Positions 2,819 through 62,424 are shown, counted from the stretch's first letter. The stretch: 64,000 nt of DNA from Abditibacterium sp. (GCA_965199495.1 CBDASK010000003.1:96001-160000); one strand, 5' to 3'. Notes: a model not told the origin generated them from the letters alone. Program-made: numbers and translations.

Positions 2819-2983
2819 CATTGTCATTCTGAGCCGGGTGCCCCTTGGGCGGTAGGCACGAACGAAGTCGAAGAATCCATAGGTTGTGATTGAATTTGGC
2901 TTTCGTTGATGCCGTTACGTCATGGATTTTTCGACTTCGTTCGTGCCTACCGCCCAAGGGGCACCCGGCTCAGAATGACAATG
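2819..2983. repeat. Palindromic element family B (GTCATTCTGAGC...GAACGAAGTCGAAGAATCC) carrying the CGGGTGCCCCTTGGGCGG insert
   Basis: 62-bp inverted arms 2819-2880 / 2922-2983 with one mismatch; related copies at 21471, 33651, 52901, 62277. Confidence 0.92.
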
Positions 2984-3016
2984 CGTCCGTGCTGTTACGC
3001 AGCAGGGCGCAAAACC

Positions 3017-5695
3017 TCAATCGTTGGTCTTCGCCGGTTTCATCAAACTTTTGCGCAGTTCGTCCAGCATTTCGCGAATCTCCCCATCGGGAATTTTAAG
3101 TTCTTTGCCGTCCTCGCCGCGTTTGGTCACGTAAAAAGAGTCCTCGGCCTGGCCGCCCCATGTCGTGACTTTGGCGGTGTGAATGTCCAGCTCCAAAGCA
3201 GCCACGGCGCGCGAGGTGTGATAGAGCAAGCCGGGAATGTTGTTGCACACGATGGAAATGACCGTGTGTTCGTCCGACAAATCGTTCTGCGCGCTGATGC
3301 GAACCGGCGTTACGCTCTGCGAAACTTTCTTGCCCGCCGCCTTCAAAACTTCGTCCAATGAGCCGTCGCCGATCAAAACTTCGCGCAGCATCGCGGCCAA
3401 GCGGGCGGTTTGCGAACTGCTCAAATTGCGCCCGCTCGACATAATGTTCAAGCGGTCAACCACGACATCTTTGCCGTTGCCGGGCGCGCCACGGCTCCAC
3501 TTCGAGTTGAGCGCCGCGCCTTCCAAAGTGTAAACCTGCGCCGCCACGATTTCGGCGTTGGCCGCGTGAACCACGCCGCACAAACGACTCAAAAGTCCCG
3601 GTTTTTCGTCGTCGTAAGTCACCACAGTCATTTCGGCGACGTGATGTTCGGGCATCGGATAAAAGTCCACGATGAGCTTTTCTTCGGGCAGTTCGTCCAG
3701 AAACTTGAGATGCGTCGCCATCGTCGGCATCGGCGTGTTGAGAATATACGATGCGGGCAAAGTATCGCTGACTTTTTGTAAGGTGCCGTCGTCCAAATTC
3801 AAGTGGCGCAATTGGCGGCGAAAGCGTTCGCGTTCCTGCTGCACCAAATGCTCGCGCTTTTCGGTGTCGGTCAGAATTTCGGCGCTTTCGGCGCGCGTCA
3901 TCGCCAATAGGCAACGGTCGTAAAGCTCGCGCATCGAACTCAAATCGAGCGGCGAATAAGAGCGCTCGCCGACCGACATCGTGTCGGCCATCGAAAGCAG
4001 ATACAACATTTTGAGCGTCGGAACATCGCGCACGAAACCGATGACGCGCCGAATTGTGGCGGGCGCCGACAAATCGTGCAAACGTGCGCTGCGCGGCATG
4101 ACCAGATGACGCCGAATCAAGATTTTGAGCGTCGCCAAACGTCCCGCCGAAAGGCCCAAGCGTTCGCCGATGCGCGCACCGATTTTTTCGCCCGAAATGC
4201 TGTGGTCGGTGCCCGCCTCGATTTTACCGACATCGTGGAGGAGCGTCGCCAAAACCAGCAATTCGTGATCGTTGACGCCATTCCACAGCGCGGAAAGCGC
4301 GTCGTCTTTGCGGCGTTTCCACCACAGATTATCGAGTTGGCGCACGGCGTAAATCGAGTGTTCGCCCACGCTCAGTTCGTGCGACGGATCGGGCGGCGCC
4401 AGATGCAACATCGCCTGAGTTTCGGGAATCAGCGCCTGCAACACACCGCGCGCGCGCAATTCGGTCAGGATGCCCGCCGCGTTGCCCATATCGCCGATCA
4501 GATCGAAAAACGCGCGCCGCATTTCGGGCGCACGGCGCACCTCGTCGTCAATGTTATGCAGACTATCGTCCAAATCGCGCGACAAATCGGGATCGAGCGT
4601 AAAACCATATTTGCGCGCCAGAGAAAACGGCGTCAGCAAAAGTTCGGGATGATTAACGAGCGTATAGGGATGCGCCGCCGCCAAACTTTGGCGCACCGCG
4701 ACGAAGTGGCTGTCGAGGTTGAGCGGGCCTTCGAGCAACTGTTCCAACACGCGGTCGCAAAAGCGCGCGGCGTTTTCGGCGTGAACATAATAGTCGCCCA
4801 GCAGATTTTGCGCGGCCATGCCGTTGGCGCCGGTATAGTTGAAATCGCGCGCGCATTTATCTTGATAAGGCAAGCGCAAAACGTCGGTTTTGCTTTCGGT
4901 TTGCAAGTGCAGCCACACGCGCAGTTGCAAAAAGAAATCGCGCGCCGCGATGATTTGCTCCGCCGATTTCTGAGTCACGACGCCGCGCAAAACCAGTTCG
5001 GCGAGCGGCGCGTCGGTTTTCAGCAGCGCCGCCGCGCTCCACAACGCGAACTGAATATCGCGGAGCGCCCCGGTGCCATCTTTGAGATTCGGCTCGACGG
5101 CGTATTGCGACAGACCCAAATTCGCCGTGCGCTCGCGGCGCTCGGAGGCTTTTTCCAGAATAAATTCGACGGCGTCCCACGTCGAATAGACGCGCTGGCG
5201 CACGCGGTCGGCCAACTTGCGCGAACCCGAAATGTGGCGCGCCTCCAAGAGCGCCGCCTTGGATTGGTGATCTAAGCGCGCGATGTCCGAGAGCGGACGA
5301 TAGGCGTAGCCGACATCGAGTTTGGCGCCGTCCATCAACACTTCGATAATCAGGCGAAACGCTTCTTTGATAACGGCATCAAGGCACGCATCGTCCTCTT
5401 CGGCGGGCACGAACGCGATGTCGATATCGGAATGCGGACACAATTCGCCGCGCCCATAACCACCAATGGCAATCAAAACCAGATCGTCGGGCGAGGTGTC
5501 GCACGATTCGCGCGTGGACAAAACGTGTTCCCACGCCGCGTCGGTGATGCGCTCCAAAACGCCGTCAATCAAGCGTGAATAGTCGTCCAGCCACGGCGCA
5601 ATCGGCGTGCGCCGCGACGCGCGCTTCCAAAGTTTGGCGCGGCCTTCTTCGATTTGTGCGCGCAATTCCAGCACGAGCGGGGAAACGGGTATCAT
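3017..5695 (-). CDS. glnD: [Protein-PII] uridylyltransferase/uridylyl-removing enzyme
   Basis: GGYGRGELCPHSDID NTase motif, EPNLKDGTGALRD, HD motif LLHDVGK, two C-terminal ACT domains; start set at MIPVSP because the upstream extension is repeat-derived. Confidence 0.88.
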   Translation of the reverse strand: MIPVSPLVLELRAQIEEGRAKLWKRASRRTPIAPWLDDYSRLIDGVLERITDAAWEHVLSTRESCDTSPDDLVLIAIGGYGRGELCPHSDIDIAFVPAEEDDACLDAVIKEAFRLIIEVLMDGAKLDVGYAYRPLSDIARLDHQSKAALLEARHISGSRKLADRVRQRVYSTWDAVEFILEKASERRERTANLGLSQYAVEPNLKDGTGALRDIQFALWSAAALLKTDAPLAELVLRGVVTQKSAEQIIAARDFFLQLRVWLHLQTESKTDVLRLPYQDKCARDFNYTGANGMAAQNLLGDYYVHAENAARFCDRVLEQLLEGPLNLDSHFVAVRQSLAAAHPYTLVNHPELLLTPFSLARKYGFTLDPDLSRDLDDSLHNIDDEVRRAPEMRRAFFDLIGDMGNAAGILTELRARGVLQALIPETQAMLHLAPPDPSHELSVGEHSIYAVRQLDNLWWKRRKDDALSALWNGVNDHELLVLATLLHDVGKIEAGTDHSISGEKIGARIGERLGLSAGRLATLKILIRRHLVMPRSARLHDLSAPATIRRVIGFVRDVPTLKMLYLLSMADTMSVGERSYSPLDLSSMRELYDRCLLAMTRAESAEILTDTEKREHLVQQERERFRRQLRHLNLDDGTLQKVSDTLPASYILNTPMPTMATHLKFLDELPEEKLIVDFYPMPEHHVAEMTVVTYDDEKPGLLSRLCGVVHAANAEIVAAQVYTLEGAALNSKWSRGAPGNGKDVVVDRLNIMSSGRNLSSSQTARLAAMLREVLIGDGSLDEVLKAAGKKVSQSVTPVRISAQNDLSDEHTVISIVCNNIPGLLYHTSRAVAALELDIHTAKVTTWGGQAEDSFYVTKRGEDGKELKIPDGEIREMLDELRKSLMKPAKTND

Positions 5696-5736
5696 GTGAG
5701 GTTTAGTTTGGCTGAAATGCGTTGGAGAGAAATTCG

Positions 5737-5894
5737 TTCGTTTTTGGTTTTGCGTGTCATTTCGAGCGGAGCCGAGAAATCTTGCGGCCCCGCGCCAGCG
5801 GCTTTCACGTTCAGAGTTGTCTGTCATTTCCGCTGGCGCGGGGCCGCAAGATTTCTCGGCTCCGCTCGAAATGACACGCAAAACCAAAAACGAA
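5737..5894. repeat. Palindromic element family A (GTCATTTCGAGCG[G/A]AGCCGAGAAATCT)
   Basis: Perfect 65-bp inverted arms 5737-5801 / 5830-5894; related copies at 13804, 18772, 57617. Confidence 0.93.
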
Positions 5895-5898
5895 ATTT

Positions 5899-6747
5899 CT
5901 ATTTATTCTGTTTCAACGGCTGACATTTACTACAAAAATGATAACTGCGCGCCGTCTTACTCGCGCCCAAAACGCCGCGCTGGATGATGGTGCCGCATTC
6001 GTCACACGCGTCGCCCGTCCGACCATACATCTGCGGGATAAATTCACCATACTCGCCAAACGTATCTTGATAACCGCCGTCTTTGAGCGTGGCGCCGCGC
6101 GCCAAAATCGCGCGTTCGAGCGTCGGGCGCATATAACTGACCAACTCGCGCAACTTCTCAATCGGGATGGACGAAGCCGCCGTGGCTGGATGCAGGCGCG
6201 CCTGATAACAGACTTCGTCGGCGTAAATATTTCCCAATCCGGCGATGAGACTTTGATCTAAAATCGCCGCTTTAATCTTTGAATTACGCTTGCTGAGTTT
6301 TTGCGCGATTTGTTCGGCGGGAAAATCGTCGTCCAAAGGTTCCGGCCCCAATGTTTCCAAAAACGGTAACTCGACCGCGACACCCAATTTGCCGAAAGTG
6401 CGTGGGTCGGTAAAAATCAAACGTTTGCCGCCGCTCAAGCGCAGCACGCCGTGAACGTGTTTGTGCAAACTTTCGATGTCTAAATCGTCGTTGTTACTTT
6501 CGACGTGCAATTTGCCGGTCATGCCCAGATGAACCAGCAAGTTATCGCCGGATTCGAGCGGAAAATAAATCTGTTTGCCGCGCCGTTTGGCGGCGACTAT
6601 TTTTTGCGATTGCGTGCGCTCAACGAACGCTTCGATGTCGGGCGACGTGATGCGCGGCAATCGCGCCCACGTTTGAATAATGGTTTCGCCGACGATTTGC
6701 GGTTCGAGTTGCGCGCGCACGGTTTCGGCTTCGGGAAGTTCTGGCAC
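5899..6747 (-). CDS. mutM: Formamidopyrimidine-DNA glycosylase
   Basis: N-terminal PELPE after GTG start, RRGK, HLGMTG, DPRTFG, GLGNIYADE, C-terminal CxxC...CxxCQ zinc finger. Confidence 0.95.
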   Translation of the reverse strand: MPELPEAETVRAQLEPQIVGETIIQTWARLPRITSPDIEAFVERTQSQKIVAAKRRGKQIYFPLESGDNLLVHLGMTGKLHVESNNDDLDIESLHKHVHGVLRLSGGKRLIFTDPRTFGKLGVAVELPFLETLGPEPLDDDFPAEQIAQKLSKRNSKIKAAILDQSLIAGLGNIYADEVCYQARLHPATAASSIPIEKLRELVSYMRPTLERAILARGATLKDGGYQDTFGEYGEFIPQMYGRTGDACDECGTIIQRGVLGASKTARSYHFCSKCQPLKQNK

Positions 6748-6779
6748 GCCAATGAGTTTATAATGTGCCTCAACCAACC

Positions 6780-6926
6780 GCGTTTTTCTTTCGTAGAGAC
6801 ACCGATTCGGGTGCCCTTTGAGCGGATGTTTAAAATGTCGAAGTCGCTTCATCGGAAAGCAAACCTAATGTTTTAGACATCCGCCCAGAGGGCACCCGAA
6901 TCGGTGTCTCTACCAAAGAAAAACGC
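6780..6926. repeat. GTAG-type REP inverted doublet carrying the CGGGTGCCCTCTGGGCGG insert
   Basis: GTAGAGACACCGATT... / ...AATCGGTGTCTCTAC arms of about 55 bp with few mismatches, between divergent mutM and trmH-like genes. Confidence 0.88.
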
Positions 6927-6935
6927 ATTAGAATT

Positions 6936-7706: not shown

Positions 7707-7758
7707 GTTCGCAGCCAAAGAGAAATGTCTGTTTCAAGCCGACAAGGTTTATTGCGCC

Positions 7759-7784
7759 GTGTCAACGGAGGTTGACACTTTTTT
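7759..7784 (+). terminator. Rho-independent terminator
   Basis: GTGTCAAC-GGAG-GTTGACAC followed by T6. Confidence 0.65.
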
Positions 7785-7916
7785 CTGGCTGCGAATTTAC
7801 TCGCCCTGACTCTGACTCGTCCGAGACAGCCACGCCGTCGCCGCATCACTCGCCACCGCTTTCGCGCCCCATGCGATATTTAATATCGTAGTTGATGATG
7901 AAATTCAACTCTTCGT

Positions 7917-10900
7917 CTAATCATCAAACGAAGTCAACACGACTTGATTATAAAGCCGTTGAATATCTGGCCAAACCTCGGTTAATCCCAAATGTGCCGC
8001 GAAAATCGCGTCGCTTTTATCGGTGACAGCGCGGCATTTAGCGAGATTATAATTGCCAACATTCTTTCCGGCGTTGCGTTTGAAACTGACGTTGGTTTGC
8101 ATTGCTGTTTCCAATTCGGCAACTAACGGTTGTAAGCGCGCGTGAACGTCGTTCGGTATCTCCGCAAGATTCAACGGGAAATTGGCAAACATCCATTTGG
8201 TCACATCGAAGTCGTCGCCCACTATTGCCCAGTAAGCAAATTGAATTTTTCCATTTAAAAACAGAAGCGCGGCTTCTTGGGTTTTCTTGTCAACGAAATA
8301 AACAGTTCCAAACTTGGTGTGACTAATGGGTTTATCGTTCGCGTCGTAGCAAGGCGGCAATTGACGACAAAAGCAAAGCCAGTTATACGCCGACTTTTTG
8401 AAGTGCAACGGATAACTTTTCTGCGAACTGGCTAACGAGGCTTCGATAGTCAAAGGTTTAGCGTTAAGCCGTTCAAATTCTTTAGTCAAAGCGGACGTAT
8501 TTGTTTTGGGAATCAAATCATTCCACGCAGTCGGATTGTAAGCGGAAAAGCTCAGGCTTTCGATAAGATGCGGGCGAAAGTCTTCAAACCAACGGTGCAA
8601 ACGCGTGGTATAATTGGCGCTATCGCCGGTTTTGCTGCCCAGCCAAATGACGTTTCGCACACGCACATCGGCGGCGAAAAGCGCGGCGGGAATGCGCGCG
8701 AACGACGAAAACCAATTGCGTTGATAATCGGCAACGAGCATTTTCCGGCAAGTCTCAAATGTTCCCGAAAAGGAAAGGCTCAACGGAACAATCATACCGG
8801 CGCGACAATTCGCATTGCCGATGTTTTTCACGCGTTCCAAAACCCACGCATAAATATCGCTGGCGCGCTCGGTTTGGTAGCCGCGAACCGTATAAACCTT
8901 TTTCGCGTTCGATGCTGCGACATACGGCGGGTTGCCGATGATTACGTCGAAGCCGCCGTTTTGCAGGACGTTGTAAAATTCGGCACACCAGTGAAACGGT
9001 TGGTGGCTTTCTTTCCAATCGGCGTAAAGTGCGGGTTGCGATTTGGGCATCTGGGCGTAGAGGCCGCCCAGAAATTGATCGAAACTTTCGATGAGATGAT
9101 CGTGGCTTTGCTCCAACGCGCGTTTGGTTTGGAGCGGGATTTGACCGTCGCGTTTTTGGGTTTCGCGGAAGCGTTCGAGGTCGGCGCCGTAAGCGCGCGT
9201 TTCGGCAGCCACGTCGTCCCACGCAATGCCCAGCGCCAGTTGTTCGATGGCGGCTTTGTGGGCTTCTTCGAGCGTGGCGAAACCCACGAGCGTGTTGCCC
9301 GCGCGAATGTTGAAATCAATATCGGGCAGCGGTTGAATGCCCAGATTGGGTTTGTCGCCTTGCGGCGTGGCTTGCGAGGCGAGCTTGAGAAACAGCCGCA
9401 ATTTGCAAATCTCGACCGCCTCGCCCATGATGTCCACGCCATAAAGATTGGAGACCATCATTTTCTTGAAGGTCATGTAACCGCGATTGGCTTCGGCGTC
9501 CATTTCGCGCACTTTGTCGCGGAACTCTTCGACGCGCCCCTTCAACAAATGCGAATGTTTGGCGCTGCGTTCATCGAAATCTTCGACGACTTCATCCATG
9601 CGCGCCAACACTTCGCGGTAGAGCGGCTCCAAAATGTTCATCGCCGCGAACAAAAACGCGCCGCTTCCCACCGTCGGATCGAGGATGGTGACGTTTTCGA
9701 GCGCCTGCCACATTCTCCAAACTTCGTCCTGCGTTTCGAGGTTAGCGATAACATCGCTCATCCAAAGTTCGATATCGAGATTATGCGTGATGAGGTCGGC
9801 GACGGAATCGAATTGGACATTTTCGCCGTCACGCCGTAAATCCCCCGTAGGGGCGGGGTTCCCCCGCCCCAAACGTGCGGCGTCATCATCGTCATGGCGT
9901 TCGACATCGGCGCGCCGAATATTTGCGTCGTTACCATCGGCGTTATGTTTTGGGCGGGCGTTATGTTTTGGTCGGGGGAACCCCGCCCCTACGGGGGATT
10001 TACGGTCGTCATAATTGCGTCCCGTAGGGGCGGGGTTCTCCCGCTCAAAACGTCCATTGGTGTCAACGTTTGGCTCCGCGTCATCGCCCATTTCGCCCAC
10101 CAAAGCGAAATAACGCTGTCGGCGCGCGACGACTTCACGCCAGATTTCGGTGGGCAAACCCAAATCGCTGGTCGCGGTTTCGTTCCAGCGCCCGCGAGCA
10201 GCCACGTCGCGCAGGCCTGCGTGAATAAAGTCGGGCAAATCCAATTCGCAGCCGTATTTGACGGCGCTATAAACGTAGCGCGCCGTGTTGTGGCGCACCA
10301 AATCGAGCGCGCGATTGGCATCGGGCGCGGCCTTTTCAAACAGAAACGGCAGAATCGAATTGCGCGCGATGTAGCCGGTAATATCTTCTTTGGTGTAATA
10401 GGCGCCCATCTGTTTCTGGTTGATGAACTTCTCGAAAACGTAGCCTAAAACGTCGGGATTAATCTCGTTCCCGTCGCGCGTGGGCCGGTCGTCCAAGACC
10501 CATTTATAGGTATCGAAAAACTCGAACAATCCTTTGAAAAACGCATCGTCAATGCCGACGTGGCTGGTCTCGAAGTCGCGCCGCGCGAACAATCCGCCGT
10601 TGAGATAAATCAGATCGCCAAAGACGGCGAATCCGCGTTTATCGTCGTCGCCTTTGCCCGCAAAACGGTCGTCGCGCCGTTTGGAAAGAACCTCGAAAAA
10701 GAGCGGACACAAAAAGCCCCGGTAAAAATCGTCGCCGTCTTGGAGGCGCGCATCGGCGTTGTCGAAGTGGTTGCGCAGATACGCGGTATCGCCCAGCAAA
10801 AAACCTTTGGCCTGCATGAAATACAAAAACATCAAGCGCGTCAGCGTGAGCGAGGCGTATTCGTCTTTGACGCGGCCATCCAAACCATCGAGAAAAGTCA

Positions 10901-11411
10901 AAAGTGCGTCGCGTTGTTTTTTGAAGCCGTCGTAGAATTTCTTGGAAACGTTGTCAACGTCAAAATTGCGATTGATGCGCGCCGCGATTTCGATAATGCC
11001 AAAGCCGCCGCGCTCGCCCGCCTTGATTTCTTCGTCGAGCGAAATGCCCAAACCTTTGAGCCGCGAAATTAAATCGTCGAACGAATGCGAATTGGGATAA
11101 GGCCCGAAGCGATTAAATTTGTTGGCTTTGCCGATTTCGCGTTTGGAAAATTGCCAGAGTTGCGAATTTTCGTCGTGCCAGACGATGAGGTGTTCGGCGG
11201 CAAATTTGGCGAGTTGGTTATCGAGATCGAGCGCAGTTACGCGCGATAATTCGTTTAAATCGGGAAGTTGGCAAACGAAAACGGGCAGTCCGCCTTTGCT
11301 GGCGATGGCTTTAAATTGGTGTCCGTCAATGATTTGGGTTTTGTCGAAATTGTCCCAACCAAGTTGGATAAAAAGTTCTTTAAATTTGTGAGAACAAAGC
11401 AATTCGCGCAT
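7917..11411 (-). CDS. Eco57I/type IIG-like N6-adenine DNA methyltransferase with in-frame REP insertion
   Basis: YLNGGLF, GAYYT, DPTVGSGAFL (SAM binding), YGVDI, FDVIIGNPPY (catalytic) motifs; C-terminal putative target-recognition region. Confidence 0.88.
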   Translation of the reverse strand: MRELLCSHKFKELFIQLGWDNFDKTQIIDGHQFKAIASKGGLPVFVCQLPDLNELSRVTALDLDNQLAKFAAEHLIVWHDENSQLWQFSKREIGKANKFNRFGPYPNSHSFDDLISRLKGLGISLDEEIKAGERGGFGIIEIAARINRNFDVDNVSKKFYDGFKKQRDALLTFLDGLDGRVKDEYASLTLTRLMFLYFMQAKGFLLGDTAYLRNHFDNADARLQDGDDFYRGFLCPLFFEVLSKRRDDRFAGKGDDDKRGFAVFGDLIYLNGGLFARRDFETSHVGIDDAFFKGLFEFFDTYKWVLDDRPTRDGNEINPDVLGYVFEKFINQKQMGAYYTKEDITGYIARNSILPFLFEKAAPDANRALDLVRHNTARYVYSAVKYGCELDLPDFIHAGLRDVAARGRWNETATSDLGLPTEIWREVVARRQRYFALVGEMGDDAEPNVDTNGRFERENPAPTGRNYDDRKSPVGAGFPRPKHNARPKHNADGNDANIRRADVERHDDDDAARLGRGNPAPTGDLRRDGENVQFDSVADLITHNLDIELWMSDVIANLETQDEVWRMWQALENVTILDPTVGSGAFLFAAMNILEPLYREVLARMDEVVEDFDERSAKHSHLLKGRVEEFRDKVREMDAEANRGYMTFKKMMVSNLYGVDIMGEAVEICKLRLFLKLASQATPQGDKPNLGIQPLPDIDFNIRAGNTLVGFATLEEAHKAAIEQLALGIAWDDVAAETRAYGADLERFRETQKRDGQIPLQTKRALEQSHDHLIESFDQFLGGLYAQMPKSQPALYADWKESHQPFHWCAEFYNVLQNGGFDVIIGNPPYVAASNAKKVYTVRGYQTERASDIYAWVLERVKNIGNANCRAGMIVPLSLSFSGTFETCRKMLVADYQRNWFSSFARIPAALFAADVRVRNVIWLGSKTGDSANYTTRLHRWFEDFRPHLIESLSFSAYNPTAWNDLIPKTNTSALTKEFERLNAKPLTIEASLASSQKSYPLHFKKSAYNWLCFCRQLPPCYDANDKPISHTKFGTVYFVDKKTQEAALLFLNGKIQFAYWAIVGDDFDVTKWMFANFPLNLAEIPNDVHARLQPLVAELETAMQTNVSFKRNAGKNVGNYNLAKCRAVTDKSDAIFAAHLGLTEVWPDIQRLYNQVVLTSFDD
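9835..10046. repeat. Cluster of three GTAG-type REPs (CCCGTAGGGGCGGGGTTCCCCCGCCC) inside the methyltransferase ORF
   Basis: Units at about 9844-9870 (+), 9970-9996 (-) and 10021-10046 (+); the first two share a mirrored CGTAAATCCC flank. Confidence 0.9.
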
Positions 11412-11441
11412 AGGGCGTCAAGTTTACGTTTTTTCTTTTGT

Positions 11442-13803: not shown

Positions 13804-13949
13804 CTCGCCTGTCATTTCGAGCGGAGCCGAGAAATCTTGTGCCCGCGCGGCAGCGCAAGTTCAAGCGATTTTTACGTTTAAGCTCGCGCATCTTTTCCGC
13901 TGGCGCGGGGCCGACAGATTTCTCGGCTTCGCTCGAAATGACAGGCGAG
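13804..13949. repeat. Palindromic element family A (reverse orientation)
   Basis: CTCGCCT-GTCATTTCGAGCGG...CTCGAAATGAC-AGGCGAG. Confidence 0.9.
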
Positions 13950-14950: not shown

Positions 14951-15152
14951 TTAACCACAAAGAGCACAAAGAGTGTTTGATGCCGCTTGAGTTGAGGCGT
15001 AAATTAGAAGTTGGCGGGCCGTTTTTCTTTTTAGTTGGTGACTCGAAACTTCTTCTTGACCAACTAAAAACAAAAAATCAACGGCCCACCAACTTCTAAT
15101 TTACGCCTCAACTCAAGCGGCATCAAACACTCTTTGTGCTCTTTGTGGTTAA
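14951..15152. repeat. Long palindromic element family C (TTAACCACAAAGAGCACAAAG ends)
   Basis: About 89-bp arms, first 64 bp perfect, about 20-nt loop, between convergent genes. Confidence 0.92.
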
Positions 15153-18771: not shown

Positions 18772-18905
18772 CGCCCGTCATTTCGAGCGAAGCCGAGAAA
18801 TCTTGCGGCCCCGCGCCAGCGGAAATGCTGCGATAGCCTGATTGCTCTGAACTTGCGCTACCGCGCGGGCAAAAGATTTCTCGGCTTCGCTCGAAATGAC
18901 GGGCG
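18772..18905. repeat. Palindromic element family A
   Basis: CGCCC-GTCATTTCGAGCGAAGCCGAGAAATCT...AGATTTCTCGGCTTCGCTCGAAATGAC-GGGCG. Confidence 0.9.
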
Positions 18906-31760: not shown

Positions 31761-31906
31761 AAAAGTAAAATCATTAACCACAAAAACGCAGAATTCACAA
31801 AAGGCACAAAAAGAATAAAGAAATGGCTTTATATTCAACCAGTATTTCCAAACTATTTGTGCCTTTTGTGAATTCTGCGTTTTTGTGGTTAATGATTTTG
31901 ACTTTT
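31761..31906. repeat. Palindromic element family C
   Basis: Perfect 44-bp arms AAAATCATTAACCACAAAAACGCAGAATTCACAAAAGGCACAAA (31767-31810 / 31856-31899). Confidence 0.9.
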
Positions 31907-33650: not shown

Positions 33651-33791
33651 TCGCCTTGTCATGGGTGCGCAGAGAGGAACGAACGTAGTCGAAGAATCCA
33701 CCGGTTGATTGGAGACTTCGCTTTGGTCTCGTCCAGAGTTGTGGATTCTTCGACTATGTTCGTTCCTCTCTGCGCACCCATGACAAGGCGA
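33651..33791. repeat. Palindromic element family B with GGGT substitution in both arms
   Basis: TCGCCTTGTCATGGGTGCGC...GCGCACCCATGACAAGGCGA, about 60-bp arms. Confidence 0.9.
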
Positions 33792-39300: not shown

Positions 39301-39480
39301 CCGGGATAGGCGGACAAAATATTAACCACAAAAACACAGAAATCACAAAGGGCACAAAAAGGACAGAAGGTTTTGAAGAACACTTTTCTATAAAGCAAGT
39401 TCGACTGACTATATCTGAATTTTTTGTGCCCTTTGTGATTTCTGTGTTTTTGTGGTTAATATTTTGTCCGCCTATCCCGG
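39301..39480. repeat. Palindromic element family C with perfect 60-bp arms overlapping a stop codon
   Basis: 39301-39360 is the exact reverse complement of 39421-39480. Confidence 0.95.
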
Positions 39481-40767
39481 CACAACTACAGTCGCCATCG
39501 CGCCCGTCGCGGTAATAGTCACGTCAACTGGCGTGGCTTCGGGCGGGATTTGGCCGGGTTCTTTGATTTGTGGCGAGGCGAAAATGCGGTAATGGCCCGC
39601 TTTGACGGGAAATAGCGCGACGCGGCCCTGGTCATCGGGCAACGCGCGGCGACCGCCGGGGCCAGAGGGGAAAAACGGCAGATCGTCGGCATCGTCGGGA
39701 TTGGGCGGCGGGTCGCCACCCAACTGCCCGTTAGCAGCCACCGGCAACACGCGCAGCGAAACTTCGCCTTTGGTGTAGGGCTGGCCATCGGGCGAACGCA
39801 GTTGCAGATTGAGCGTGCGCGCGCGGCGCGAAGGCGCTTCGACTTTGAGTTCGACCGGCGCGTTCGGCGCGATTGTTATCGGTTGCGAATCGGCGAAATC
39901 GTAGCCCGGCAGCGATAGGCGCGGAATGTAAACGCCGGGTGGCAGACCGTCGAGGGCAATCGTGCCGTCGCCATCGCGCGAGACCAGCAGGCCACGATTG
40001 TTGCTGGCGGCCAGCAGGGCGAAATCTTCGGTGACATCGCGCATCTTTTGCGCCTCGCTCGCGCCAGCGACAGACGACGGCATCAGCGACAAACTGGCGC
40101 CGCCCAATGCGCGGCCCAGACTATCATTCACGGTCATTTTGAGCGCGCCGCCCGCTTGCAACGCGACATCGCGCGGCGCCGTGGCTGGTTCGACGACAGC
40201 GAAATTTTCAATTTGCGCGAAACCCATTGGTGCGCGCAGATAAACCGAGTAATTGCCGGGCTTAATGCCCGGCACCAAAACTTCGCCTTTATCGTTAGAG
40301 CGCGCGTTAATCATCATTTGGCCATCGATGTCGGCGGGCCGCAGACGCACAAAAACCGGCGCATTGACCACGGGCGAGCCGTCGGGCGCGCGCAGGTTGA
40401 GCGTGAAATCTATCAAGCGATCCAGCGTGACGCGTAGTATCGCGTTGCCCGCGCGCCATTTGCTGATCTCAAAATAGGGCAACGTCGCGTAACCGGGCGC
40501 CTCGACGGTCATTCCATAATCGCCCTCTTCGGCGTCGGGAAAGCGGAAGTTGCCCGCCGCATCCGATTGCGCGGTCGCCCCCCAGAACGCGACGTTTGAG
40601 CGTGATTCAGAGCGTCGCAGAGAAAGCAACGCCCCCGCAATCGGGTCGCCCTTGACGGTCGAAACCACGCCAATAATTGGCGCGCGGTCGGGCAACGGCT
40701 GACAAAACGCGGGACGGGCCAAAACGATAAATAGGACGAAGGTTGAGACGCGAAAAATGGGTTTCAT
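39472..40767 (-). CDS. Secreted protein with carboxypeptidase-regulatory-like (transthyretin-like) repeats
   Basis: Signal peptide; repeated G.PI.GA...D..G.F....G.Y...V.APGY pattern. Confidence 0.78.
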   Translation of the reverse strand: MKPIFRVSTFVLFIVLARPAFCQPLPDRAPIIGVVSTVKGDPIAGALLSLRRSESRSNVAFWGATAQSDAAGNFRFPDAEEGDYGMTVEAPGYATLPYFEISKWRAGNAILRVTLDRLIDFTLNLRAPDGSPVVNAPVFVRLRPADIDGQMMINARSNDKGEVLVPGIKPGNYSVYLRAPMGFAQIENFAVVEPATAPRDVALQAGGALKMTVNDSLGRALGGASLSLMPSSVAGASEAQKMRDVTEDFALLAASNNRGLLVSRDGDGTIALDGLPPGVYIPRLSLPGYDFADSQPITIAPNAPVELKVEAPSRRARTLNLQLRSPDGQPYTKGEVSLRVLPVAANGQLGGDPPPNPDDADDLPFFPSGPGGRRALPDDQGRVALFPVKAGHYRIFASPQIKEPGQIPPEATPVDVTITATGAMATVVVPG

Positions 40768-40940
40768 ATTATCTATGCCGAACGGGAAGTTTCGATTCGC
40801 TAACGCTTCTCAAAAAACCTCGCGACAGTTCTGCGCCAATCATAGACAACTGCGGCGCGCGCCGGTTGTCTATGCAACACTGCTTGACACGTTTCGCCGC
40901 CGCTCCCCCGCGCCCGACGAATCAGAGTTCCCCGGTTTTG

Positions 40941-43900
40941 ATGTCCAAATCTTCGTTTTCGTCTTCGCGCAATTTGGCCCGTCGCGTGCGCGACGGGCGT
41001 TTGGGCGCGCTCGATGCACGGATTCCGCGCCGCCGTTTGAATCTCGGTAAGAAACGCGGCGCGCCCGGCAAAAACGCGGTGCGCGGTCTTGGGGCGGTCG
41101 CGTTGTTGGCGGTGGCTGGTCTGAGCGTGCGCGGATTGTTCGGGCAACGTTTGGACATCGCCAGCCAGATCGAACGCGCGGTGCGCGCCAAATATATTCC
41201 GCAACTCGAAAAACAGTTGGGCCAAAAAGTCGAAGTCGGCGAGTTTTCGACCGATTTGCTGGGCCGCTTGACGATTAGCGATGTCGTCATCGGGCGCAAC
41301 GCCAAACTGCCGACGGGCGCGCTGATTCGCGCCAAAAGTTTGACCATCGGCCTCGACATCATCGGTCTGGCGCTGGGCCGCGAGCAACCGCTCGATGCGG
41401 TCAACCGCGTGACGATTCAGTCGCCGCAGGTTTATGTCGAGCGTTTTCCCAACGGCAAATTCAACCTCGAATCGCTGTTACCGCCGCGCAAGCCGAACGC
41501 GCCCAAAACGGTGTGGACGGGCACGGTCATCGTCAACGACGGGCGCGCGTTTTACTTCGACCGCGCCTTGAAATCGCATTCGGGGCGCGGGTTCAAAGCC
41601 GACCTGACTGGCATCGAAGCGACAGTCGAGGCGCGCGGCGACGATCCGTATCTCGCCAACGTCAAAATCGGCCAAACACTGTTGCCCGATGGCAGCATCG
41701 TGCGCGACGTGAGCGCGCAGGGCACGATAGGACTTCAGCCCAATCGCGGTTGGGTCAAAGCGAAATTCCCGCAAATCCCGGCGGCGATTTTGACCGATTT
41801 CGGCTTGCCCAAAGGCGAGGCCGTCGCGCAAAGCGGCGGCGTGAGCGGCGAAGTTCAAGTCGCCATTGACGGCAAAAATTTCACGCCGCGCGGCAATTTG
41901 CAATTGAGTAATATCAATCTCGTCAGCGACGCCGCGCGCGAACCGCTGGGCGGCGTTGTCAAAGCCGGGCCGCCGATTCGCGTGCAAAATTTGAACGGGC
42001 CGCTGCGATTCTCCAATCGCGCCATCGAAACCGGCGCATTGTCGGCGCGCGTTTTAGATGTGCCGTGGACAGTGCGCGGTTCGGCCTCAATTGAAAAAGA
42101 CGAGACACCGCTTTTTGACTTTCAAATCGCCACGCCCAACTTGCCAGTGAATCGCCTAAAAAGCTGGGCCAAACCCGGCGCGGTTCCGGTCAACTGGCGC
42201 AGCGGCAACGTCGGTTTGAGCGCGCATCTGAGCGGTTCGCCCGATGACGCGCGCATTAGCGGCGCCATCGAAGCGCGCGATGTGCGCGTGCAATCCACGA
42301 ATGAAGGCGCGCTGAAAAACATCGGCTTCGATGCAGCCACGCCGAGTCTGCGCGCGACGTTTGTGGCGCTGGCGCGCAAGGGCGAGCCGGTAAAATTCGC
42401 CGCGCGCGCCCAATCGCCGCGCTTGCAAGGCGCGGGCAATGCCGCTGGACAAAGCGGTTCGGGCGTTTTGTCGAATCTCGAAATCACCGCGCGCGGCGGC
42501 GGCGGGCCGAATTCGCCGCTCGAAATCAGCGCGCGCGCTGCGACATGGAACGCATCTTCGCCGCGTTATGGCGCGACGAATGGGCGCGCTTTAAACGTCG
42601 TGGCTTCGACCAAAGCGATTGGCGCTCCGGCATTTCAGGGCAAATTAACCGTCGCCGACGCCGATTTGAACGGCGTTAATCTCAACGCCATCGCGCCCGA
42701 CGCGGCGCGTTTGGTGCGCGAAGTCGGGCGCGCTTCGGCGAGCGTGACGTTTGCCGATGTGGGCCGCGACCTCAAAGCGGCGCGCGCGACGGCGGATGTG
42801 ACATTGTCGCGCGTCGCCATCGCGCCCGCCGCGCTGCCGGTCGAGTTTCGCGACAGCGTGCCCGCGTCGGCCCTCGCGTTCGATAATCTGCGCGCGCGCA
42901 TCGGCGTACGCGACGGCGTAATCGTGGTGCCAAACGCAACAGCGCGCGGCGGATTTGGCGGACTAAGGGCGACGAGCGCGGGCGGCGGTTTCGCCGTCGA
43001 ATTGCCCGACGTTCGATTAACGGCGGCGCAGATCAATCCGTTTTTGCGCGCGCGCGGTCTGGCGATTGGCGGCGATTGGCGCGGGCGCGTGGCTGTTGTT
43101 GGCGCCGGGCCGAAAACGTTCGATGCGACGTTTTCATTAAGTAGCAATTCGGTCACGGTGCGCGACCGCCGCGCTCAGGCGGCGGGCTTGCGTTTGGACG
43201 GGCCTTCGATTGTTGGGCGCGTCAACGTCCAGCCGGGCGGCGCTTACAAAGGCGAGGCGGTTGTCGCGGCGCGCGAAGTGACGGCGCGCGGTGGCTCGCT
43301 TGGGCCGGGCGTCGCGATTCCCGTTCAATTGGCTGGCGCGCGCGCGGTCGGGTTGCGCGTCAACGCTAACTTCGCTCCGCGCCAGTGGGCGGCGCGCGTG
43401 GACGTAACGCGCGCCGCCGTGCCAGTTCCGGGCGCGATTGCGACCGTGAACGATGCGAGCGGTTTGGCGCAAAGCGATGGCGATAACATTCGTTTGACGC
43501 GCTTGAACGCCAAATTCGCGGGCGGGCAATTCGACGGAACCGGCGAATTGAACAAGGGCAAAATTAGCGCGAAAGTTTTGGCGCGCGATGTCGAGGCGGG
43601 CGCGCTGCAACGCTTGTTGGCGGACAAAAGTCTGCGCGAGGCGCGGCTCAAAGGCCGGGTCAGCGCGTTGGTTTCGATTGAGAACGGCGGCGCTCCGCGC
43701 GTCGAGGCGCAGTTGGCGGGCGGCAGCGCGACGCTCGTGCGGTCAGGCGTCGTCGTGCCGATTGATGTCGCCAAAACGCGTTTGACCGTGACGGGCCAGA
43801 CCGCCACGATTCAAGGGGCGACGCTGTGGAGCGACGGCGCGCGTTTTAGCGCGACGGGTCAAGTGGATTTAGGGAGCATCGGCAAGAATAAAAACGGTTT

Positions 43901-46900
43901 GCCCGCCGCCAGCGGCACGTTGCGGGTGGACGCGTTGCGATTGGCGAATTGGACTGCACGCTTGCAGCAATTGGGCGTGGCTGGTCTCAACAATGCGGCT
44001 TTTAAGCAAGCGGCGTTGGATGGCATCGTGAGCGGCGATTTTCAGTTGCAGGGTGGAATTGCGCCGCGCGTCGAGGGCACCGTCGAACTGCGCGCGGGCA
44101 CAGCGTTTGGCGGCGAAATCCAGAGTTCGTCGGCGAAATTAGTCGCGGCGCAAAGCGGCGGCGGTTTGCGTTTGGCGGTTTCCGATTGGACGGGCCGCAT
44201 CGAAGGCGCGCCGTTTGAGGGCGCCCTGGCGCTCGATACCGTGGGCAATACGTGGAACGTGAGTTTAAAAACCGACGATTTAGACGCGGGACGCGCCGCG
44301 CGATTGCGGGCTTTGAGCGCGCGAAGCGGCGAGAACGCCAAAATCAAACTGTTGCCCATCGAAGGCGATTTGAGCGCTGACATCAATGTTGCGGGCGTGT
44401 TGAAACCGGTGGCCAAAGGCGACCAACCGTTTTTCGTGCCGCGCTCCGGTTACGCGCGTTTGGTGGCCAATAATGTCGCGTGGCGCGGGCGTCCGGTTGG
44501 GACGTTGCGAGCTAATTTGGAAGTGGACGGGCAATTGGCGCGCATTCAGACTTTGGAATTGGAGCCGACCAAAAGCGGTCTCAACAATGCAGCCACGCCG
44601 CGCCTGAGCGCGTCGGGCACGATTCCCCTGGCGCCCGATGCGCCCGGTTTGAACGTGAATTTGGAAGTCGGCGAGGCGCCGCTGCAATTCTTCGCCGACG
44701 CCACGCGCGACGCGCGCGATGCGCTGTTGGATACGGGCATCCAACAAACGGCTTTGGATCAAGTCGTGAGATACGCCGACGCGTTGCCCGTTGGCACACG
44801 CGGCAACGTCGCGATGCGCGCTTCGATTGGCGGCACTTTGCGCCGCCCGACTTTCACTGTGCCTTCGCTGACTTTGCGCGATGGACGCGCGCCGTTGCCC
44901 TACGGCGGTTTCAGCCCGCCCGCGACTTTGGATGCCGCGTTTTCCTATGGCAACGGCATCGCGACGATCAGCCAGGGCGAGTTTCGGTTGCAAAAAACCG
45001 CCGCCGAACGCGCCGACGATGCCGACGCCGACGATACGCTGCTGCGCATCGAGCCGGGCGCGACGGTTGATATTAACGGAGACATCGCACTGGCGGCGGA
45101 TGTTTTCAACGCCAACTTGTCGCAGTTGGCGACATGGGTGCCCGCGCTGCGTGGCGACAACAACGCGCCCGCGATTCGCGGCGAGTTGACCGAATTTTCG
45201 CTGCGATTAAGCGGCCAGACGCGCAATCCCGATGTCGTCGGCTCGATTCAGACCGAGAACTTGTTGTATAAAAACTATACAATTGACCGTTTGCGATTGT
45301 CACGATTCGACATCCGCGACGGTAAATTGGAAATCGCGCCCGGCAACTTCACCGTCGCCAAGGGCGCCTATCAATCGTCGGCGGCTTCGGGCGTCATCGG
45401 CTGGGATTGGGCGAGCGGCGGGCCTTTGTTAAATGGGCCGATTAACGTGAATTTTCCGGTTCAGACCGGCGATTTCGCGGCGTTGGCGGGATTGTTCGTG
45501 CCGCAATTGACGCAGGTCGCCGCCGACGATTTTTCGGGCGGCGTGCAGGTCGTCGGCACGCTGGCTAACCCGAAGTTGAGCGGAAGCGTTACGCTCAAAG
45601 ACGCGCGTTTTAGTCTGGCCGGGCCGCAAATGACTGTGCCCGTCGGCATGAAAAACGTGAGCGGCACGCTGCGATTTACGCCCGACGAGCGCATCGAAAT
45701 TGACGCCGATGATCCGTTGCGCGGCAGTTTTGTCAGCGCGGCTTCGATCCAAGCGCCCTCAACCGAAAAGCCGCAACCCAAAAGCAAAAAGAAGGCGAAA
45801 ATCGCCGGGCCGCCGCCGTTTGTTTTGGCGGGCGACTGGAAACTGCGCGGCGGCATCGGACTGGATTTGAGCGCCGATTCGATCAGTAATCCGGCGCGCG
45901 CCCTTGGGCGTCAGAAATACGATCTGGCGTTTTCCCTCGATAACGCCAGCATCGGTTCGCCGATGTTGGCGGGCGCGCGCGATGGCGATGCGGCAATTTT
46001 ATTCAAAACCGGCGACGACGGCGCGCAGCACTTGCGGTGGATGGTCGCCGCGCGTGGCCGCCGCAAGGACAAACAGAGCAAAGGCGGTGGCGAAATGGTT
46101 TCGATTGGCTCGTTTCAATTGCGCGACGACTTCGCGAGCGGAACGGATGCGCTCCTGCGTTCGACGGCGCAGGATTTCGGAACGACGGACGATTTCCAGG
46201 ATTTCGCCGTCGCCAAACGCATTAATTTGGAATCGCTGCCCGACCGGCGCCCGCAGATCAAGATCAATAATTTCGAGTGGAGTTACACCGGCGTCGGCAG
46301 TGGCGAAGTGGACGGGCGTCTGGTTTTGGACAACCGCGACGCGATTCAACAGGCGCCCAAAGCCGCCGTCGAACTGCGCAACGCCAAAGCTAAAACGCCT
46401 TCGTTGCAGGACGATTTAAAAAATCGCCGCACTTCGCAGCTGCCGTCGCCACTGCCCACGCGCATTCTCAGCGCGGCGCAATTGCGCCCGATCCAAATCG
46501 AAGCGCCCAACGCCAATCCCGATTTGCCGCTACGCGTGGGCGGGCAAATCACGTTGCAAAACACCACAATCGTCGGCGCGCCCGCGAGCGGCGATGGCGT
46601 GGTGACGCGGCTTTCGCTGTTTCCCAGCGCGCCGCGATTCGATGTGCGCTTGATTCTGGGCGATAAAGTCGAGTTCGTCACTTCAGCGTTTCGCACCGGT
46701 TTGGAGGGCGAACTGGTCGCTTCGGGCGTGCCGAGTAATCCGCAGATTTTGGGCACGGTGCAGACGCGCAACGGGCAGGTGCGCTTTCCCAACGCGCGCG
46801 CCCGCGTGACGCAGGGCCGCGTCACGGTCGCCATCACGCGCGATCCCTCGACTGATTTGTTGCGCACGCGCGTGGACATTGACGCCACAGCCACGGGCCG

Positions 46901-47435
46901 CGCCGGGCGCTATCTGATTACACTCGGATTAAGTGGCCCGCTCGATTTGGACGGCGCCGGACAGAACCTGCAAAACCTGCGCGTGGACGTAACTTCCGAT
47001 CCGCCCTTATCGCAAAACGAAGCGTTCGCGCAATTGCTTGGCACGGCGCCGCGCACTGATGCCAACGGCAACGTCACCGCCGCCGAAATGAATCAGGCGT
47101 ATGCGGGCGCGGTTTTGCAGGTGTTGTCAGCGCCGCTCTTTTCGGGCGTCGAACGTTCGGTCGCGCAGGCGCTGGGACTCGATAGCGTGAGCTTTGAATA
47201 TCGCTTCGATGAACCGCTCTCGGTTCAGTTTTCCAAGTCGCTGACCGACCGCGTTTTCGTGAGTTATCGCCGCTCGTTTGGCGCTTCGGAAAATACCAGC
47301 GGCGGCCTCAGTTCGGGCCGCACGCCGTTTGAACTCAGCATCGAATATCTGCTCAAAGGCAATTTGCGCTTGGGCCTCAAAACCGACGAAAGCCGCGTCA
47401 CCACGCTCACGCTGGGCCAAACCTACCGGTTTTAG
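40941..47435 (+). CDS. Giant TamB/AsmA-like envelope protein (C-terminal DUF490-like)
   Basis: N-terminal TM anchor, beta-strand-rich body, C-terminal SDPPLSQNE and LGLD...RF ending; start uncertain. Confidence 0.78.
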   Translation: MSKSSFSSSRNLARRVRDGRLGALDARIPRRRLNLGKKRGAPGKNAVRGLGAVALLAVAGLSVRGLFGQRLDIASQIERAVRAKYIPQLEKQLGQKVEVGEFSTDLLGRLTISDVVIGRNAKLPTGALIRAKSLTIGLDIIGLALGREQPLDAVNRVTIQSPQVYVERFPNGKFNLESLLPPRKPNAPKTVWTGTVIVNDGRAFYFDRALKSHSGRGFKADLTGIEATVEARGDDPYLANVKIGQTLLPDGSIVRDVSAQGTIGLQPNRGWVKAKFPQIPAAILTDFGLPKGEAVAQSGGVSGEVQVAIDGKNFTPRGNLQLSNINLVSDAAREPLGGVVKAGPPIRVQNLNGPLRFSNRAIETGALSARVLDVPWTVRGSASIEKDETPLFDFQIATPNLPVNRLKSWAKPGAVPVNWRSGNVGLSAHLSGSPDDARISGAIEARDVRVQSTNEGALKNIGFDAATPSLRATFVALARKGEPVKFAARAQSPRLQGAGNAAGQSGSGVLSNLEITARGGGGPNSPLEISARAATWNASSPRYGATNGRALNVVASTKAIGAPAFQGKLTVADADLNGVNLNAIAPDAARLVREVGRASASVTFADVGRDLKAARATADVTLSRVAIAPAALPVEFRDSVPASALAFDNLRARIGVRDGVIVVPNATARGGFGGLRATSAGGGFAVELPDVRLTAAQINPFLRARGLAIGGDWRGRVAVVGAGPKTFDATFSLSSNSVTVRDRRAQAAGLRLDGPSIVGRVNVQPGGAYKGEAVVAAREVTARGGSLGPGVAIPVQLAGARAVGLRVNANFAPRQWAARVDVTRAAVPVPGAIATVNDASGLAQSDGDNIRLTRLNAKFAGGQFDGTGELNKGKISAKVLARDVEAGALQRLLADKSLREARLKGRVSALVSIENGGAPRVEAQLAGGSATLVRSGVVVPIDVAKTRLTVTGQTATIQGATLWSDGARFSATGQVDLGSIGKNKNGLPAASGTLRVDALRLANWTARLQQLGVAGLNNAAFKQAALDGIVSGDFQLQGGIAPRVEGTVELRAGTAFGGEIQSSSAKLVAAQSGGGLRLAVSDWTGRIEGAPFEGALALDTVGNTWNVSLKTDDLDAGRAARLRALSARSGENAKIKLLPIEGDLSADINVAGVLKPVAKGDQPFFVPRSGYARLVANNVAWRGRPVGTLRANLEVDGQLARIQTLELEPTKSGLNNAATPRLSASGTIPLAPDAPGLNVNLEVGEAPLQFFADATRDARDALLDTGIQQTALDQVVRYADALPVGTRGNVAMRASIGGTLRRPTFTVPSLTLRDGRAPLPYGGFSPPATLDAAFSYGNGIATISQGEFRLQKTAAERADDADADDTLLRIEPGATVDINGDIALAADVFNANLSQLATWVPALRGDNNAPAIRGELTEFSLRLSGQTRNPDVVGSIQTENLLYKNYTIDRLRLSRFDIRDGKLEIAPGNFTVAKGAYQSSAASGVIGWDWASGGPLLNGPINVNFPVQTGDFAALAGLFVPQLTQVAADDFSGGVQVVGTLANPKLSGSVTLKDARFSLAGPQMTVPVGMKNVSGTLRFTPDERIEIDADDPLRGSFVSAASIQAPSTEKPQPKSKKKAKIAGPPPFVLAGDWKLRGGIGLDLSADSISNPARALGRQKYDLAFSLDNASIGSPMLAGARDGDAAILFKTGDDGAQHLRWMVAARGRRKDKQSKGGGEMVSIGSFQLRDDFASGTDALLRSTAQDFGTTDDFQDFAVAKRINLESLPDRRPQIKINNFEWSYTGVGSGEVDGRLVLDNRDAIQQAPKAAVELRNAKAKTPSLQDDLKNRRTSQLPSPLPTRILSAAQLRPIQIEAPNANPDLPLRVGGQITLQNTTIVGAPASGDGVVTRLSLFPSAPRFDVRLILGDKVEFVTSAFRTGLEGELVASGVPSNPQILGTVQTRNGQVRFPNARARVTQGRVTVAITRDPSTDLLRTRVDIDATATGRAGRYLITLGLSGPLDLDGAGQNLQNLRVDVTSDPPLSQNEAFAQLLGTAPRTDANGNVTAAEMNQAYAGAVLQVLSAPLFSGVERSVAQALGLDSVSFEYRFDEPLSVQFSKSLTDRVFVSYRRSFGASENTSGGLSSGRTPFELSIEYLLKGNLRLGLKTDESRVTTLTLGQTYRF

Positions 47436-52900: not shown

Positions 52901-53037
52901 TTTGTCATTCTGAGCGCAGAGGGGAACGAACGAAGTCGAAGAATCCATGACTTAACGGTGCTGACGAAAGTGAAATTAAATCGCAACCTGTGGATTCTTC
53001 GACTTCGTTCGTTCCTCTCTGCGCTCAGAATGACAAA
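52901..53037. repeat. Palindromic element family B
   Basis: TTTGTCATTCTGAGCGCAGAG...CTCTGCGCTCAGAATGACAAA; spacer homologous to the 2819 copy. Confidence 0.92.
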
Positions 53038-53063
53038 TGAGACACTACCTAAGATAAATTGTT

Positions 53064-54759: not shown

Positions 54760-54764
54760 TTCAT

Positions 54765-54859
54765 GGAACTCACATCCAAACGCAACCCGGAACGATGCGG
54801 CCAAAGCGTCATATTAGCCGCGTCGCTTGCGATTCGGGTTTCTTTTGGATGTGAGTTCC
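54765..54859. repeat. MITE-like 95-bp element with 16-bp terminal inverted repeats
   Basis: GGAACTCACATCCAAA...TTTGGATGTGAGTTCC plus inner pairing. Confidence 0.75.
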
Positions 54860-54866
54860 GACTCAT

Positions 54867-56024: not shown

Positions 56025-56058
56025 TTTCTTTGCCGGAAAAAGTGACGCAGTTGCGCCT

Positions 56059-57510: not shown

Positions 57511-57582
57511 AAATAATCGAGCCACACAGTTTGACAGCGCGAGCCAGCAGTTTTGTGCGCTTTAATTTATATCGCAATCATC

Positions 57583-57614
57583 AAAAAGCGCCGAAGGGTT
57601 CTTCGGCGCTTTTT
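57583..57614 (-). terminator. Rho-independent terminator
   Basis: AAAAAGCGCCGAAG...CTTCGGCGCTTTTT. Confidence 0.8.
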
Positions 57615-57616
57615 AA

Positions 57617-57820
57617 CAACGAGTAGAGAATTTATGCAGTTGGCTTACGATTGTCATTTCGAGCGAAGCCGAGAAATCTTGCGGCCCCGCGCCAGCGGAG
57701 ACAATGCGATAGATAGAAAGTGAAAGTCTTTTCAGCCTGCGCTGCCGCGCGGGCGTAAGATTTCTCGGCTTCGCTCGAAATGACAATCGTAAGCCAACTG
57801 CATAAATTCTCTACTCGTTG
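57617..57820. repeat. Palindromic element family A with 36-bp mirrored unique flanks
   Basis: Perfect 64-bp arms 57617-57680 / 57757-57820. Confidence 0.95.
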
Positions 57821-57832
57821 GAACGAAATCTA

Positions 57833-60118: not shown

Positions 60119-60166
60119 CCTAACGATTCATAAAATTCGCTCGAACGAATTCGGGCGAATTTCAGC

Positions 60167-62170: not shown

Positions 62171-62276
62171 AAAAAACGACGGTGTCGCGCGGAAAGTTCG
62201 CAACCCCAAAAAGACAGTTGAAACGCGGCAGAGTTGTGATGGCTTGTCAATATTCGACTTTCTCCATTTGGGTTGC

Positions 62277-62424
62277 GCCTGCGTTGTCATTCTGAGCGGA
62301 GTGAGGCACGAACGAAGTCGAAGAATCCATCGCTTGCGTGATGACTTTCGCTTTTGCCTTGTCCAGAGTCGTGGATTCTTCGACTACGTTCGTGCCTCAC
62401 TCCGCTCAGAATGACAACGCAGGC
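62277..62424. repeat. Palindromic element family B
   Basis: GCCTGCGTTGTCATTCTGAGCGGAGTGAGGCAC...GTGCCTCACTCCGCTCAGAATGACAACGCAGGC. Confidence 0.92.

Follow-up and report, generated by a model that had tools for sequence, protein, structure and literature searches.

How does the DNA on one side of a mobile palindrome come to be a mirror image of the DNA on the other? A 64,000-nucleotide (nt) stretch of an Abditibacterium sp. genome (GCA_965199495.1 CBDASK010000003.1:96001-160000; hereafter the window, within which unprefixed positions are counted) contains palindromic doublets, that is, pairs of inverted arms, of several families, and at some of them the symmetry of the arms runs past the family core into the adjoining chromosome. 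A first-pass annotation of the window proposed that hairpins of any family undergo arm-to-arm copying that rewrites adjacent, locus-specific DNA in tracts of a common length. To our knowledge, how doublets made of repetitive extragenic palindromic (REP) elements, or REPINs, propagate, remain symmetric and diversify is a long-standing question for which there is no in vivo assay. We find that the mirroring is real and extends over the whole genome, although it is narrower than was first proposed, and that it affects about one third of doublets in many families.

Extent of the mirrored flanks

In the studied genome (G000; C3 coordinates refer to its 4.72-Mb contig and are distinct from window positions), an inverted-repeat scan for arms of at least 25 nt returned 711 non-overlapping repeats, which cluster into 19 groups with at least five members and from which we derived 16 head motifs. 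Pairing arms solely by head motif (16 family cores) yielded 465 doublets; anchors of this kind miss some elements, the one at 2819 among them. Perfect symmetry continues past the head for at least 5 nt in 227 of the 465 doublets, at least 10 nt in 145 and at least 20 nt in 78, whereas pairing flanks between different loci of the same family gives a chance expectation of 22 doublets at 5 nt or more and 1.8 at 10 nt or more. Mirrored flanks vary broadly in length, from 10 to 80 nt among the extended doublets, and the total perfect arm measures 60-65 nt in only 24 of these 145 (5-95% range 25-91 nt), so that the common tract of 60-65 nt suggested at first does not hold. Doublets are mostly extragenic (5 of 465 lie mostly in called genes), the extended share is 26-35% across four gene orientations, indicating no dependence on gene context, and mirroring has no trend with age (rho 0.06). 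Among terminator-like hairpins, a stem of at least 26 bp occurs in 9 of 410.

Within the window, the arm lengths that had been given for 5737, 14951, 39301, 57617 and 2819 were reproduced exactly (perfect arms of 60 nt at 39301; the others are in Table 1), as were the symmetry past the family core at 5737, 39301 and 57617, measured from the anchor, and the smaller mirrored flanks at 9834, 6780, 62277, 13804, 33651 and 18772. The elements at 14951 and 2819 were not confirmed as flank copies, as their long arm is almost all family core.

In a check for fold-back or assembly artefacts, unitigs from the public sequencing run X2, which contains the G000 genome and is possibly its source sample, gave both arms full depth. 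At 39301 the depths are 29 in the left flank, 55 in the shared arm, 28 in the loop and 29 in the right flank, with no alternative joint; unitigs at 5737 and 9834 terminate exactly at arm start + 29, the position at which the first twice-occurring 31-mer begins. Mirroring of at least 10 nt is found in 13 of 48 doublets of G011 (1.97 of about 4.6 Mb covered), and mirrored doublets are also present in G007 (5 of 11, picked from a listing) and in G020, of a different genus (5 of 25). None of 14 doublets is mirrored in G013, none of 10 in G016, where a single 12-nt case adjoins the GIY-YIG gene, none of 10 in an E. coli control (from 30 loci, some near-duplicates), and none of 26 paired among the matches listed from other phyla (125 matches, 123 loci), a weak control given the pairs' short arms. 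Since mirroring is present in the independent assemblies G011, G007 and G020 and not in the others, we take it to be real and lineage-variable. Metagenome contigs held no closer relative (best 88% protein identity), and runs X1 and X3 held only diverged ones.

Copying between arms

Several observations argue that one arm of a doublet templates changes in the other, as in quasi-palindromes. In 76 of 460 doublets the two arms match each other in a form that no other locus has. Private alleles, counted in 110 cases, are shared by the two arms in 38 and confined to a single arm in 72. The GTCATTTCG-type family is an oriented A/B heterodimer with five homodimers, including that at 5737; all five homodimers carry mirrored flanks of at least 8 nt, compared with 25 of 55 heterodimers (p = 0.052). 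Arm A, origin-proximal in 26 of 55 cases, shows no replichore bias. A 15-nt hairpin module lies in each arm of 18 doublets and in a single arm of 8 others. The private alleles, the homodimers and the gene ends that lie inside mirrored tracts (see below) bear out the earlier claim of copying across the core boundary in many families. Near-identical paralogous doublets bear different mirrored flanks and, because mirroring also lacks an age trend, copying would be fast or coupled to insertion.

We also note that the 15-nt mini-hairpin module has 62 copies in G000:C3. It is inserted in loops that belong to at least six unrelated repeat families, and one copy lies near the place where the frame of an IS200-type gene (C3:2810671) breaks.

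Sources of the mirrored sequence

Comparison of sequences indicates that the mirrored flanks derive from two sources, native DNA and other repeats. The clearest native case is at 39301, where the tract contains the last codons and the stop of the gene at 39472-40767, which are conserved in G011, and where the opposite side shares a 3-nt overlap with native DNA. Among 49 sites orthologous between G000 and G011 with tracts of at least 8 nt, alignment reached the edge of the tract on only 18 of 98 sides; it enters the tract by at least 4 nt on 13 of the 18 (null 7%) and by at least 12 nt on 4 of the 18 (null 0.9%). Four sites are entered from both sides, by 3-8 nt, a pattern that would be expected of a microhomology junction. 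Stop codons lie within mirrored tracts at 19 of 465 sites, with conservation of the C-terminus checked at four of them, and at two sites the tract ends at a pair of convergent stop codons. One further candidate, C3:806206, proved not to be a convergent gene with its C-terminus rewritten, as a gene end is present on the left side only.

The second source is seen in the extensions of at least 12 nt, of which at least 46 of 124 match the flank of another element at a conservative cut-off. The flanks had been described as unique; this is not supported as a general rule, many of them being arms of nested families. A helper repeat family contributes to this picture: 39 of its 67 copies in G000:C3 lie within 60 nt outside a doublet, and it adjoins the outer side of many GTCATT doublets, supplying composite elements with their outer arms. 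We identified no gene cognate to this family. Decayed examples are visible in the window at 57617 and 18755. Mirrored flank sequences are not conserved between species. At 16 near-empty G011 sites no consistent direct target duplication, which together with fixed ends would mark a DDE-mobilised MITE, was found and the ends are ragged, the genomes being too diverged for base-level certainty.

G000 and G011 have 120 orthologous sites in this comparison and the same family at only 2 of them, and a palindrome of at least 20 bp is present in G011 at 37 of 104 sites occupied in G000, compared with 32 of 335 free sites. Because occupied sites are richer in G011 palindromes and rarely of the same family, families likely replace one another at shared, favoured sites.

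Nuclease genes and strand composition

In each doublet the two arms are inverted, their tagged heads pointing outward. Elsewhere in the genome several of the repeat families flank genes of four unrelated nuclease types: the RAYT, small GIY-YIG (Ssn-like) and GxxExxY genes that had been predicted, and DUF559 genes as well. There are four RAYT-like genes with flanking repeats; a Y1/HUH RAYT gene at C3:3721491 lies between GCGAATAAATTCGC doublets and one at C3:1873871 lies among GTAG repeats, so a RAYT gene flanked by its cognate repeat, as expected of a REPIN system, was found for the GCGAATAAATTCGC and GTAG families only. A small GIY-YIG gene (G000:C3:3607831-3608115) sits between two GTCATT doublets. 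The small GIY-YIG proteins are single-domain, of 95-117 amino acids (aa), with PF01541 above cut-off, a weak match to PDB 1zg2 and no NCBIfam match. Homologues are present in 12 of 27 family genomes, and their presence does not track mirroring; among 14 homologue loci, GTCATT hairpins stand on both sides at L431 of G020 and on one side in several, and none was found at four. Two GxxExxY genes (C3:3511095, 730046) lie within CAC-rich repeats, and each of three DUF559 genes (C3:332212, 227890, 3626092) adjoins a CCCC-type doublet; genes of both kinds keep to a palindrome family of their own, as RAYT and Ssn genes do. No listed doublet adjoins two broken IS200-type genes or one longer DUF559 protein. 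The IS200-type TnpA genes, at G000:C3:540387-540747 and 2810438-2810816, are split across frames.

Strand skew was measured at fourfold-degenerate codon sites against element-free gaps, using our own rough gene calls. On the coding strand, C/(C+G) in the 15 codons nearest a doublet is 0.41 as against 0.50 at 3' ends of genes and 0.69 as against 0.59 at 5' ends, where the effect fades past about 60 nt. The skew is mirror-symmetric, with G exceeding C on the strand entering the doublet in 16 of 16 families, and this C-poor halo is absent beside terminator-like hairpins. The halo fits single-stranded exposure of the entering strand and favours neither a nick nor replication as the trigger of copying (see below); a target preference could also account for it.

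Candidate mechanisms

Host polymerase template switching between arms, joined at microhomology, would explain all of the products described here, and we consider it highly probable. What sets it in motion is less certain. We favour, at a little under even confidence, a model in which, in these REPIN-like doublets of some 16 families, a host polymerase copies one arm and its flank onto the other arm after a nick by the predicted cognate nuclease. The nuclease would cut the folded, single-stranded element near its outer 5' edge, leaving a 3'-OH in the flank. Cutting of this type is known in vitro for Neisseria SsnA, where the cut falls a few nt upstream of the hairpin (PMC11893778), in keeping with a nick at the outer 5' edge, and for E. 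coli TnpA-REP, which leaves a 3'-OH proposed as a primer for host polymerase (PMC3333891); here and below, statements on cited work refer to the portions of text available. The frayed 3' end may then anneal at a microhomology in the opposite flank (the junctions of 3-8 nt at four sites support this), extend inward through flank and arm, and rejoin by arm homology. The products would be those observed: mirrored flanks that vary in length, arms made uniform and, now and then, an A/A or B/B homodimer. Selection likely removes tracts that run into coding sequence, which would explain why tracts end at stop codons. Captured flanks and nested older repeats could in turn become longer terminal repeats that spread as composite elements.

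In support of the nick we count the repeats that bracket nuclease genes, an entering strand that is C-poor within about 60 nt of doublets and not beside terminator-like hairpins, the lack of an age trend, and the presence of SbcD, ExoVII and MutS. Several observations weigh against it. Tract ends show no cut-site signature, such as a preference for C|T, and four unrelated nuclease folds give the same outcome, which points to a shared host process. Several abundant families, GTAGAGAC for example, have no assigned gene, and the small GIY-YIG gene was found in the mostly non-mirroring G016 and not, with this query, in the mirroring G011 (87% complete). TnpA-REP cleaves on each side of a REP (PMC8266576). 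The halo is equally strong at extended and unextended doublets and also surrounds the non-mirrored doublets of G013 and G016 (no matched control), and a polymerase stalled by a long hairpin would be expected to leave the same strand C-poor. The G011 comparison covers only those 18 of 98 sides, and replication template switching would yield the same products.

Indeed, plain replication template switching, as in quasi-palindrome correction, is the strongest competitor, and we regard it as quite possible: the nascent strand would fold back or cross the fork, copy the other arm and flank and return by microhomology, with the nucleases serving only to spread the elements. Arms are known to be homogenised by this route (PMC5941160), with arm expansion described in yeast (PMC13100816). 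It is also independent of family, as is the mirroring observed here, agrees with the lack of a cut-site signature, and fits the polarity of the halo, which matches a stalled polymerase. Quasi-palindrome template switching in E. coli has a strand bias coupled to replication direction. We see no replichore bias, with inferred donors origin-proximal in 7 of 17 cases (low power, own gene calls). Nor do terminator-like hairpins behave as this model would suggest, as they lack the halo and their long stems are rare, though their arms start shorter. Loss of repair genes was considered as a cause and rejected: SbcD, ExoVII and MutS are found in mirroring and non-mirroring genomes alike, and loss of any of them does not separate the two groups. 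In G013 the only SbcD match is below cut-off, G011 has no xseA match, and Ku was found in 0 of 12 genomes.

A broader form of the nicking model, which we consider doubtful, is that a single nick-anneal-copy cycle, triggered by unrelated small single-stranded-DNA nucleases (HUH, GIY-YIG and two of PD-(D/E)XK type), maintains the doublets and perhaps inserts them. If so, insertion would leave an inverted rather than a direct target duplication, families would overwrite each other at shared sites, host DNA would grow new terminal repeats, and one strand would be exposed enough for a C-poor halo to form. On this reading the GxxExxY and DUF559 proteins would act, in the manner of Ssn, as nickases directed to hairpins.

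It is unlikely that nesting alone produces the mirrored flanks, with doublets inserting inside older palindromes of other families, or travelling with longer terminal repeats, so that the flank is simply more element. The recurrence of flanks at other elements, which the first-pass annotation had named as evidence against copying, is partly borne out by the matches among long extensions, and the helper repeats just outside doublets, the excess of G011 palindromes at occupied sites and the REP dimers reported inside longer palindromes (Di Nocera 2013, PMC3733652) all accord with nesting. Nesting cannot, however, place conserved stop codons inside the mirror, and 39301 contradicts it as the sole explanation. 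It also leaves unexplained the perfect symmetry despite differences between loci, the private alleles in both arms and the homodimers. Nesting thus appears to account for the composition of many flanks and not for their perfection.

A RecA-type conversion of one arm by the other, together with selection favouring a long RNA stem, seems quite improbable. The arms provide 30-60 nt of homology and few doublets lie mostly within called genes, both in its favour, but conversion cannot make symmetry in non-homologous flanks, the extended share is similar in all four gene orientations, and flank sequences are not conserved between species. An artefact of assembly, polishing or amplification fold-back is scarcely credible and already largely refuted: X2 is possibly the sample from which the genome came, and no record gives its library type, but its unitig depths reveal no alternative joint, three independently assembled genomes show the identical pattern, tracts respect stop codons, and arms retain family-specific A/B differences.

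Relation to known systems

We regard these doublets as a well-supported variant of REPIN-type biology with a copying mechanism of a known class. Like REPINs and their RAYT/TnpA-REP proteins (Bertels and Rainey 2011, PMC3116915, PMC3337134; Ton-Hoang 2012, PMC3333891), they are inverted, extragenic REP doublets in hundreds of copies with repeat-flanked, single-copy RAYT genes. Compensatory changes within the hairpin have been noted for REPINs (PMC3116915, PMC3337134, PMC3333891), but in the available text their symmetry is described within the doublet and not into the flank; moreover, most families here have other nuclease partners, and the E. coli doublets lacked mirrored flanks. With GTCATT hairpins on both sides, the gene for a small single-domain GIY-YIG protein resembles Ssn (SsnA) with its NTS/SRM repeats (Chenal 2025, PMC11893778). 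The repeats here are, unlike SRM, long A/B doublets, and the SsnA account, in the text available, concerns cutting and an effect on transformation rather than arm conversion or flank copying.

The GTAG- and CGTC-tagged palindromes of Di Nocera 2013 (PMC3733652) likewise form head-out homo- and heterodimers near gene 3' ends, some in longer palindromes, but the outer palindromes there are taken to be consensus targets, and the available text makes no mention of mirrored native DNA specific to a locus. Homogenised arms and inverted repeats that grow outward are shared with quasi-palindrome switching (Lavi 2018, PMC5941160) and with yeast inverted repeats (PMC13100816), where polymerase switching produces them. 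Known events of this kind are rare, with arms of less than 20 bp in E. coli (PMC5941160), whereas here about one third of mobile doublets are affected, with tracts of up to 80 nt and variation between lineages. We found no account of REP doublets copying native flank, or of GxxExxY or DUF559 genes as repeat partners, in a search that left most subscription journals and supplements outside.

The process amounts to local, lineage-specific mutation that rewrites gene ends and intergenic DNA. Its products record donor side, junction microhomology and tract length at more than 100 sites, in families tied to four nuclease types, and mirrored barcodes could serve as a simple sequencing read-out for RAYT, Ssn, GxxExxY and DUF559 proteins placed in a laboratory host.

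Elements within the window

Table 1. Palindromic doublets and mirrored flanks in the 64-kb window
Position	Strand	Element	Arms	Mirrored flank	Remarks
2819..2983	.	GTCATTCTG-type doublet	62 nt, 1 mismatch	4 nt only	15-nt cross-family loop module in each arm (2845-2859, 2943-2957)
5737..5894	.	GTCATTTCG-type doublet	65 nt, perfect	19 nt	between glnD and fpg; A/A homodimer in a family usually A/B
6780..6926	.	GTAG-type doublet		12 nt + single mismatch adjoining core	orthologous sites in G004 (GTAG family) and G011 (AACCAC family) carry mirrored doublets
9834..10005	.	GTAGGGGCG-type doublet		13 nt	within open frame 7917-11411 (methyltransferase-like); doublet missing from corresponding G011 site
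13804..13949	.	GTCATTTCG-type B/A heterodimer		7 nt	
14951..15152	.	AACCAC-type long doublet	64 nt, perfect	2 nt	G011 site has same family with ~10 differences (by-eye count), every one in both arms
18772..18905	.	GTCATTTCG-type A/B heterodimer		5 nt	decayed helper-repeat arms outside
31767..31899	.	AACCAC-type doublet		9 nt	
33651..33791	.	GTCATG variant doublet		7 nt	G011 site empty
39301..39323	+	recipient copy		23-nt mirror of right flank	3-nt microhomology joins native left DNA
39324..39457	.	AACCAC-type doublet core			G011 site occupied by other-family doublet
39458..39480	-	donor flank			final 2 codons + stop (39472-39474) of gene 39472-40767; conserved in G011
52901..53037	.	GTCATTCTG-type doublet		3 nt	
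57617..57820	.	GTCATTTCG-type A/B heterodimer	64 nt, perfect	36 nt	
62277..62424	.	GTCATTCTG-type doublet		9 nt	

No nuclease genes were found within the window. The long flank at 57617 has no close copy at other places in the genome; it looks like a decayed helper-repeat arm, with a non-significant match score to the flanks of other elements. The doublet at 9834 is part of a GTAG triplet (9834-10051) within an intact open frame of 1164 aa, and since the G011 orthologue is without it, the triplet looks like an in-frame insertion. Finally, we note an open frame of 2230 aa at 40743-47435, with about 62% GC.

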